From IMG/VR virus record IMGVR_UViG_2740892229_000022: a stretch of 35,130 bases of DNA; one strand, 5' to 3'. A program made the position numbers. This DNA comes from a virus. Lineage: Duplodnaviria; Heunggongvirae; Uroviricota; Caudoviricetes. Shown piece after piece: positions 21,001 to 24,000 of this stretch (the stretch's first letter is position 1; each line of letters starts with the position of its first letter).

Positions 21001-24000
21001 GACTGTAATTTCAGATAATCGCTTTCGTTCGGTAGCTGCCACTGACTGGCACTGAACCAGTGCGACACCATGTTTTTCTTTCCTGTGGCATCCACTATCT
21101 GTTTTGCCGTTATCCCCAGGGCAGCACGCGCATCACGAAAGTAAGCAATCAGCGGAGCCATCACATGCTGTTTCAGTGCCCTGCCCTTCGCCTCATACCC
21201 GGCATCTTTCGGACGATACGGCCCCTGATAATGTTCCGCGAACAGAATGCGCTCTGTGGCGGGGAAATACGCCCTCAGGCTTTCCTTGTTGCACCCGTTC
21301 CAGCGTCCGGACGGCTTCGCCCAGATAATATGGTTCAGCACACTGAAGCGTTCACGCATCATGATTTCAATGTCAGATGCCAGGCGATGGCCACAGAACA
21401 GGTAAAGACTTCCGGCAGGTTTCAGCACCCGCCAGAACTGCGCCAGACACTGGTCCAGCCATTTCAGGTAATCCTCATCACCCGTCCACTGGTTATCCCA
21501 GCCCTCAGGCTTCACTTTAAAGTACGGCGGGTCCGTGACTATCAGGTCAACAGAATTTTCGGGTAACGACCGGATAAATTCCAGGCAGTCGGCGTTGATT
21601 AACTCACAACTGGATATTTTTACAGTATTAAACATGGATCATTAAGCCTGTCTCTGATAGGCTCATACCGCTTTTGCGCAAAGCAGATGGGCCTGAGGTT
21701 TGCTTGTGACCCCAACGCATGAGCAGATGGCTGGTGAGTGCCCCTAACACCCACCAGCCGCCCATTTACCACAAATAAAAAAGCCTTCAGGACTGAAGGC
21801 GTCTGTAACAACCAAACTGATAGTCTGCCAGACCCGCCATAACAAGCTGGGTCAGTATTAGCTGGCAGCGTTCGCGTGAAAGGTACGTATTCTGTGCAAT
21901 CTCCCCGACTGTCGCCGGTGCGGTGGCACTTAATTCATTAAACACCACTCTGGCGGTTTCTGTCATATCCTGCTGTTTCAGCATGTCTTTTTCCCTTTTC
22001 CGGTTAACGTGACACACCAATAACTCTTGTCGAAAAAGCCAGCAAGCTGAAAGACCGGTATTCACCGCCACCAGCGCGTTTAACGTACTGGTCCGATTTC
22101 AGGCATAAAAAACCCGCCTGACGGCGGATTTAAGCTGTGTGGCAAAGTAACCACTCTTAACATACTGACATACTTTTTGCGGACCGCACTAATCATTTTT
22201 TACTTTTTTAGCAGCCAGTCGTCCATCTCCAGTCTTACCCCCAGCACAGACAAACATCCGTCAATAAACCCTTCGGCTATCTGCATCTCAATTCGTATTG
22301 CTTTTTCGCTTTTCTTTCTCGTCCTGGCTATCTGTCTTTTTGATATTCGCAACAAATAATGAGCAATGAGAAGCGAATACTCCTCAGGTTTTTTCTGCTT
22401 CAGACGTGCAAGACAGTTTTCAATGATAAGTCCGTCATCATCGCAGCAGGCTGGACGTGGTTTAGTGGTAGATGGTAAAAGGCCTTTGAATCCGGCAGCG
22501 ATCGGAGAATAGTCCACCCCGGTGTTACCACTTGCCGCCCATGCCCCCCAGCGTTCAAGAACCATCTGAATATCACGCATCAACTTTCTCCACAAAAATC
22601 AGGACAGCACACCAATCGCCAGTGCGCGATCGATAAAACGAAATATCAGCTCCAGTTGGGAACCATACTTCTCTTCAAATGCCACGGTATCCGCATGCAG
22701 TTCGTCATGGTGTTTTCTGCACAAAGGCAACACAAAAAGGTCATGCGCTTTTGTACCCATTCCACCCTGACCATGGCCAATCAGGTGATGTGGATCGTCG
22801 GCTGGCTTACCACAACACGCGCAAGGCTGTGTCTTAACCCAGCGCGTGTACTTTTCATTAACCCAGCGACGACGTTTGGGGCGTAACATAAAAGACTCCG
22901 GCGACTCCGGATCCACTTTCAGCGCCAGCACCTTTTTCGCTTTATCCTGGATAATGCTGGTGGCAGGAACCGAAGGCACAAGGTCACTCTCCCGGGTGAC
23001 AGACGGCAAAACAGGCTTCGGTAATCTCAGGGCCTTACGGGCTGCACTTTCCGGTAAGGCATCCGCCAGGTCATTACGAACCAGCCACCAGCACAGTTCA
23101 GGCATTGTCACAACGTGACTGTCATCAAAACCGAGATCACGACGGACTACGGACAACACCCAGCGGGCACAGTTATCCGTTGCCATTGACTCCAGACGTT
23201 CCGTGAACTGATCGCGAAGCAGGTTATCGCAGTGCCAGCACAGACGGATTGCGCCCGGCGCGTGTCGCATTGTGGTCATGTTCTCGCTGTGCCATCCGGA
23301 ATGAGGCCACTGGCAGCCTTTTTCACGAAGTAACCAGCTCTCAAGGCATTCCACGCCACCAGCACGACGGATCACCGCCTCATGGCGGAACACGGCCCGA
23401 ACGGCAGGATCATCCGCCAGCGGTTGTGATGCTGCCGGAACGGCACCACTGGCAAAAGATGAATAACGTTCCGGCTCAGGCTCCAGCAGGACACGCCCCT
23501 GCATAAACAGGGGCATCAGCTCTGAACCGGGTCTGAACAAGACGATCCCCATACGCGGGGCAATTTCAGGGGTCAGCAGTGCTCTCACGGTCACCTCAGC
23601 GAACGGTATTGCATGAACGCAGGAGAAAAAATTCAGCCATCACGCAGTAAACTCTTTCACCAGCGTTTCAAACTGGCTTACCTGGCCTTCCAGTTCCGCC
23701 ACGCAATCCACCAGCTCATCCACCGCCTTTTGTGTGCGATGTTTTGCCTGCAGCAGATCACGAAGCGCCGGAGTAAGCTGCTTGCGGAGCGTATCTTTTG
23801 CCACGCTCGTTTTTTCCATCTGTTCAGCACAACGAAGCATCTCCTGCGCCTGCCGACGAAGTTGTTCCGGTGAAACAGTGGTGGTTCTGTTGTTCAAAAT
23901 AAACGCTCCGTTTTACTACCCGACATGCGGTTATTGCTGTATCTGCGCGGATTGCCCGGCGTCATGGGAGTGGAAAGAACCCGGGCACTCTCCTGGTCCA

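Follow-up and report, generated by a model that had tools for sequence, protein, structure and literature searches.

Organisation of the late control region

The DNA examined here is a stretch of 35,130 nucleotides from a tailed phage (IMG/VR virus record IMGVR_UViG_2740892229_000022), referred to throughout as the window, and our subject is the short region immediately downstream of its antiterminator gene Q, where a late promoter (pR'), a short leader and an intrinsic terminator are predicted. The late genes are on the minus strand, with stx2AB, nanS-p and the lysis genes all located on that strand downstream of the terminator that follows Q. Q, a DNA methylase and two esterase halves were identified as products within the window, which also has three tRNA genes; the reading frames of stx2A and stx2B take their names from an identical phage record that is annotated, and the holin and lysin are open reading frames (ORFs). 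Over positions 21600-22620 the window has 100% identity with long-tailed phages of Stx2a and Stx2d type already published in the O145:H28 phage set, and also with phage ASU11 (O80:H2). Long-tailed Stx2a phages of this type form a distinct Q cluster, and strains carrying window-type long-tailed Stx2 phages have lower Stx2 yields than those with 933W-like short-tailed phages (PMC11333237). In all likelihood, the cassette described below controls the late operon of a lambda-like, long-tailed Stx2a prophage.

The Q gene is upstream of the late cassette and on the same strand, and its product matches the full length of the PF06530 (Phage_antitermQ) model with an E value of 6.4e-53. It belongs to the Q21/Q933W family, shares 49% identity with Q933, and is a distant match (E 7.7e-8) to the Q21 structures 6P18 and 6JNX, although its C-terminal half could not be aligned with that of Q21 using phmmer. 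Reading along the minus strand, the hairpin sequence AAAUCCGCCGUCAGGCGGGUUUUUUAUG is positioned 72 nt after the Q stop codon, the terminator stretch there being AAAUCCGCCGUCAGGCGGGUUUUUU. Together with its A/U extension the hairpin has a predicted folding energy of -13.8 kcal/mol (z = -4.45), and none of 200 shuffled sequences was as stable. A generic terminator scan did not list the site at 22128-22107, likely because the maximal stem with flanking A/U pairs takes three U's of the T-run. A custom scan (hairpin dG of -9 or lower, a gap of 0-2 nt, and at least T5, with dinucleotide-preserving shuffles as the control) does recover it; in all, six sites of this kind were counted along the late strand of the 35-kb window, compared with 0.5 +/- 0.7 in the shuffles. 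A chance hairpin is ruled out by these shuffle counts together with the conservation described below. The first-pass annotation had placed a GC-rich hairpin and T-run at 22104-22127, about 75 nt after the Q stop, and was correct to within a few bases. The features around 22107-22128 support a unit following Q that is predicted to comprise a late promoter, a short leader and a terminator (Table 1).

Table 1. Predicted features of the Q-proximal region and the downstream late strand, in window coordinates.
Feature	Position	Strand	Details
Q gene	22200-22580	minus	126 aa; ATG at 22580, stop TAA at 22202-22200
Palindrome GCGGTCCGC, candidate Q-binding element	22179-22187	minus	Followed by AAAAA (22178-22174); about -32 to -24
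Candidate pR' -10 region	22159-22170	minus	TG (22170-22169) and CAGTAT (22167-22162), in register with 933W TATCAT
Alternative pR' -10 hexamer	22159-22164	minus	TATGTT, three bases on from CAGTAT
Predicted +1	about 22155	minus	A of TAAG-A-GTGG, by homology to Sp5
Conserved core TAAGAGTGGTTACTTTGCCAC	22139-22159	minus	Spans -4 to +17; contains TACTTT
Candidate sigma-dependent pause element	22144-22149	minus	TACTTT, -10-like; +7 to +12
Predicted intrinsic terminator	22107-22128	minus	Hairpin UCCGCC-GUCA-GGCGGG (22128-22113), then U6 (22112-22107); end at about +49
Second terminator	21777-21800	minus	Overlaps the stop codon of a 65-aa ORF (21787-21984); terminator scan, folding, custom scan
Third terminator	20248-20271	minus	Between the tRNA genes and stx2A; scans and folding; 933W counterpart annotated
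Terminator 3' of stx2B	18676-18695	minus	-17.3 kcal/mol; is the 3' end of an STnc100-family RNA match
Terminator directly upstream of the holin gene	15533-15565	minus	-19.1 kcal/mol for 15565-15536; scans and folding

Homology to 933W and Sp5 suggests where the promoter and leader lie

A sensitive search with 176 bases around the interval returned 380 phage records, with most matches starting at window position 22184 or 22162. In phage 933W the bases homologous to window 22184-22107 are those annotated as the pR', qut and first terminator segment, with 80.7% identity over 57 nt for the part from the -10 region to the first hairpin; the GenBank annotation gives pR' as TTTACG-16-TATCAT, then qut, and then a 'possible rho-independent terminator'. 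The bases labelled qut are equivalent to the window core at 22139-22159, and a consensus scan of 933W recovers both TTTACG-16-TATCAT and the first hairpin at positions homologous to those in the window. Phages 933W, Sp5 and H-19B all resemble the window in having a Q protein within PF06530 and the same spacing of start, -10-like element and hairpin.

The start of the Sp5 PR' transcript in strain Sakai was mapped by dRNA-seq to a primary site 258 nt upstream of the Term-seq 3' end at tR' (PMC7547250). Counting back 258 nt from the StxS 3' end in NC_002695.2, we located this start at the A of TAAGAG, 7 nt after TATCAT. The window has the same heptamer (TAAG-A-GTGG), and transcription is thus predicted to start at about 22155, wholly downstream of the Q stop codon. 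The first-pass annotation gave no position for the promoter, which here is placed entirely 3' of the Q stop. A TAnnnT motif occupies the -10 place in relatives. A 7 bp direct repeat, AGTATGT, is present twice with a period of 8 bp at window 22160-22174 (minus strand; about -19 to -5), overlying the -10 region; it is found in all loci with window-type Q but not in the closest Q cluster, and its spacing recalls the direct-repeat site of Q21.

Within the conserved core, TACTTT is a putative sigma-dependent pause element, which retains an A as its second base and a T as its sixth; the 933W equivalent is TACATT. The predicted 49-nt leader folds into two hairpins with an A/U-rich linker and a U-tail (-20.9 kcal/mol, z = -4.61).

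In 933W, too, the module is positioned ahead of the tRNA genes and stx2AB, and the region from the 3' end of the methylase gene through the tRNAs to just before stx2A is 96% identical. The two phages differ in that their Q proteins share only 49% identity, the upstream palindrome reads GCGGTCCGC in the window but TTTACGATCGTAAA in 933W, and the TTTACG -35 hexamer is missing from the window. They also differ downstream of the leader. StxS, described for Sp5 and Sp15, is a 258-nt PR' transcript of which the 3' 74 nt, released by RNase E, hold the regulatory seed and end at tR' (PMC7547250). The window lacks the StxS-specific segment of about 200 nt; what it has there is the 65-aa ORF, which ends in a terminator of its own (21800-21777), along with a methylase gene that is intact. 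A sequence search of the window found no match to either the 3' part of StxS or the +258 tR'. The two genomes correspond again from about 10 nt after the 933W tR' onward (window 20687-20197). When 933W (locus L006, 1250-1470) is set against window 20687-22106, it is seen to keep just the 3' end of the methylase gene, with the StxS segment of about 200 nt in place of the 65-aa ORF and the remainder of that gene. We considered and rejected the possibility that the element is StxS itself, as the window has a counterpart to roughly the first 50 nt alone, with no match to the 3' part or to its terminator, and there is no Rfam match at threshold. Judged from its sequence, the element is orthologous to the late control region of 933W/Sp5, within the Q21/Q933W family, and has so far been uncharacterised.

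Relationship to the lambda and phage 21 systems

In phage lambda, the arrangement of pR', 6S RNA and tR' comprises a constitutive late promoter, a promoter-proximal pause and a short terminated leader, with Q-dependent read-through into the lysis and structural genes. The same control logic is proposed for the window, although the predicted leader is about 49 nt long as opposed to about 194 nt in lambda. Lambda Q itself is a member of PF03589, a family unrelated to PF06530 (10.1101/651190).

In phage 21 the Q protein belongs to the same family, the candidate DNA element in the window lies in the same zone between -35 and -10, and the same mechanism is expected. Proteins of the Q21 family bind the promoter DNA at an element between -35 and -10, are loaded from there onto polymerase paused by sigma, and build a nozzle at the channel through which the RNA exits (10.1101/651190; PMC6606751). 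That element consists of two TGAGCA direct repeats, 8 bp apart and centred at -21 and -13 (PMC6606751), whereas the window and all relatives sampled have an inverted repeat at about -34 to -21. No TGAGCA is present within window 22155-22215, and a Q21-type binding element was rejected for the window because these direct repeats are absent.

The module recurs among phages, keeps its structure, and can lie apart from Q

The transcribed core (TAAGAGTGGTTACnTnGnCAC) is present in more than 120 IMG/VR viral contigs, and the module in 219 of 5426 complete Escherichia coli genomes; within the window the core occurs once, against 0.01 occurrences expected with three mismatches allowed. The core block does not vary between phages that differ in Q subtype and positions +1 to +24 hardly do, an invariance that is partly by construction in that the search pattern fixed most of the core bases. 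Among unique versions of the +1 to +75 region, all 59 have a hairpin and T-rich tail at +19 to +58. Three unrelated stems are represented in these (CCCGC/GCGGG, CCTCGC/GCGGGG and CCCTGCC/GGCGGGG), and because unrelated stems replace one another, structure is kept and not only sequence, although the stem of the standard hairpin itself hardly varies.

The module is not always adjacent to Q. In phage cdtI it is located about 1.5 kb past the Q gene with opposite-strand genes between them (locus L005, 749-2137), and in many IMG/VR loci and phages of the Lambda_4C10 type the core follows the Q stop at a distance of 0.6-2.5 kb; wherever annotation was read, the genes between the two are encoded on the opposite strand. 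Phages Stx2a_1447 and Stx1_14040 have, directly upstream of the module, the same kind of genes as are found between Q and the module elsewhere. Since the module is intact at distances of 0.6-2.5 kb from Q, the hairpin is part of the promoter unit rather than the 3' end of Q. Two individual arrangements can be added: Lambda_4C10 (locus L002, 22-1104) has an opposite-strand porin gene about 400 nt upstream of the module, and Stx2a_1447 (locus L001, 1-1446) has two opposite-strand hypothetical genes that end about 50 nt upstream of it.

An upstream palindrome corresponds to Q subtype

Every phage has a short palindrome and an A/T tract upstream of the -10 region, and the sequence of the palindrome differs according to the type of Q. 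The Q proteins were clustered at 80% identity and redundant entries removed, leaving 77 loci, and at all 77 the class of palindrome agrees with the subtype of Q; sequence past the terminator, by comparison, reassorts freely among the same clusters. Q933-like proteins are accompanied by TTTACrwwCGTAAA, while GCGGTCCGC is shared by the window-type cluster and a cluster that is 74% identical to it. Two clusters that are 63% identical to each other have GCG(T/C)ACGC, two pairs of clusters, each about 70% identical within the pair, have TGGAATTCCA and TTCGTTACGAA respectively, and one further cluster has TGTTATAACA. The N-terminal half of Q is highly conserved, and it is the part predicted to form a helix-turn-helix that varies in step with the palindrome class.

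The Hamiltonella phage APSE-1, whose Q is 63% identical, has 22 bases around the palindrome (ATTAGTGCGGTCCGCAAAAAGT) exactly in common with the window, and its transcribed region is diverged; no obvious hairpin and T-run follows in the diverged APSE-1 leader. In this aphid-symbiont phage ATTAGTGCGGTCCGCAAAAAGT lies inside the annotated 3' end of the Q-like gene (locus L129, 715-760).

A literature search found no defined binding element for Q933. We take the palindrome zone (about -34 to -21) as a candidate site of Q binding, and its position within the zone bound by Q21 is consistent with such a role. We suggest tentatively, as a possibility to be taken seriously but held with some reserve, that in the Q933-like branch the specificity element for Q is a short inverted repeat over the -35 region, and that with the near-invariant block of pause, leader and terminator it forms a portable cassette; recombination within the block could then join any pair of Q and palindrome to any late operon, toxin operons included. 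If so, an insertion of foreign genes that separates Q from the cassette would do no harm, since Q would recognise the palindrome in trans.

Proposed control and alternative interpretations

Sequence features, conservation, homology to 933W and Sp5, and the association of palindrome with Q subtype are directly established, and we consider it very probable that the promoter following Q, the subtype-specific palindrome in its upstream half, the near-invariant initial transcribed region and the terminator at about +49 together constitute a late control cassette. For this cassette, the efficiency of termination and the dependence on Q are presumed. In a lysogen, polymerase would start at about 22155 and mostly stop at 22112-22107 to release the leader of about 49 nt; polymerase escaping this site would meet the second terminator at 21800-21777. 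By analogy with the Q21 family, sigma would hold polymerase at TACTTT. Upon induction, Q would be made from the early rightward transcript, bind the promoter element at the palindrome, and load onto the sigma-paused polymerase, such that terminator hairpins could not form, as in the Q21 structures. Read-through of the first terminator and at least four more (at 21800, 20271, 18695 and 15565) would then express the 65-aa ORF, the methylase, the three tRNAs, stx2AB, nanS-p and the lysis genes.

Several observations do not sit comfortably with this proposal. No consensus sigma-70 promoter was found by a consensus scan of 21950-22300, and by this measure pR' of the window is weak, because the -10 is CAGTAT (three of six consensus bases) or TATGTT (four of six) and the -35 position is occupied by GTGCGG, with no recognisable -35 hexamer. 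TACTTT has just three of the six -10 consensus bases, and a few relatives carry TACTTA. The Q21 element is a direct repeat and not a palindrome, and the association between palindrome and Q could partly reflect linkage. Dependence of stx2, nanS-p and the lysis genes on Q is assumed by analogy with 933W-type phages. Finally, the mapped PR' 3' end in Sp5 is at +258, beyond the homologous first hairpin. Because the mapped tR' is this second terminator, the first hairpin is evidently not a complete block in Sp5, and some polymerase passes it there even when Q is absent. The +258 terminator is missing from the window, and the first hairpin of the window may be only one tier of a multi-terminator barrier. 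The first-pass annotation described pR' followed by tR'; homology to 933W and Sp5 supports a promoter and terminator unit, while the name tR' needs care since in Sp5 it belongs to the second terminator.

These last observations raise the question of whether the hairpin instead attenuates leakily, or serves the leader as a structural element, with the real block downstream at 21800-21777 and 20271-20248. This is compatible with a late control cassette, and we regard it as rather unlikely though deserving of some weight. When Q is absent, PR' transcripts of Sp5 and Sp15 extend to +258 (PMC7547250) despite the homologous hairpin and U7 at +24 to +50, two further strong terminators precede stx2A in the window, and many relatives have interrupted T-runs (for example TTTTGTCGTTT). 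However, among the hairpins of the standard class that were found, the one in the window has the greatest stability and an uninterrupted U6, and phages of the Lambda_4C10 type have no terminator-like site other than this hairpin ahead of the holin gene, located about 140 nt downstream of the module. A product of about 50 nt would also have been invisible in the Sp5 study if, as we assume, the probes were aimed at the 74-nt 3' fragment. Another reading is that the hairpin is the 3' terminator of the early rightward (Q) operon, with no promoter between the two. The hairpin is indeed 72 nt after the Q stop and no consensus promoter was detected, but in cdtI and many IMG/VR loci it is 0.6-2.5 kb from Q and yet 25-30 nt after the conserved core, and the homologous sequence of 933W and Sp5 contains a mapped primary start site; we find this explanation scarcely credible.

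The leader could also be conserved for a function of its own, as a trans-acting small RNA of about 49 nt that is made constitutively in lysogens and resembles StxS on a shorter scale. Small RNAs that bind Hfq are usually built of hairpins, an A/U-rich linker and a U-tail, and the predicted leader has all of these; +1 to +24 is nearly invariant across Q subtypes, and StxS provides a precedent. This too would be compatible with a control cassette, but it seems quite improbable. A search of the interval against Rfam gave nothing at gathering thresholds and, at E values of 10 or below, chance-level matches only (isrK with 13 bits, where the gathering score is 50, and P9 with 11.9 bits), the regulatory part of StxS is the 3' 74 nt that is absent from the window, and conservation of the initial transcribed region is already expected from the requirements of pausing and Q loading, quite apart from the invariance that the search pattern introduced.

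Other features of the late strand

Two further minus-strand terminators, reported in the first-pass annotation at 18671-18694 and 15532-15562, are both real, with slightly adjusted boundaries (Table 1), and two additional ones, the second and third terminators, lie between the Q-proximal hairpin and the site at 18695. A full-length match to STnc100 (RF02076, 159 bits) is located directly after stx2B at window 18665-18879 on the minus strand, and convergent with its end is a terminator-like site on the plus strand (18635-18664; GCCCGCG...CGCGGGC and T8).

The tRNA at window 20461-20536 (minus strand) is called as Met(CAT) by ARAGORN and is the positional counterpart of 933W ileZ (tRNA-Ile); it is followed by two tRNA-Arg(TCT) genes. 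The nanS-p esterase frame (16177-18539, minus strand) is represented by two overlapping ORFs, at 17418-18539 and 16177-17469, while Stx2_EH2201 and 933W each have a single nanS-p ORF of 645 aa; the split frame suggests that the gene is either frameshifted or of a longer type. Matches to the C4 antisense RNA (RF01695, 85 bits) and isrK (RF01394, 57.6 bits) adjoin one another at window 27913-28101, also on the minus strand and far upstream of Q.

Implications

The accepted picture of Q-dependent toxin control is unchanged by these findings, and the biology is that of the textbook; only the subtype-specific palindrome and the portability of the cassette are mildly new. Stx2 output of 933W-type phages depends on the late promoter and Q, and the placement of pR', a likely Q-binding element and the first terminator provides targets for reporter constructs in this Q subtype. 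The same targets would serve for a comparison of promoter strength, the window promoter being without a -35 hexamer, and for asking whether the specificity of Q for its promoter limits cross-activation between co-resident prophages.

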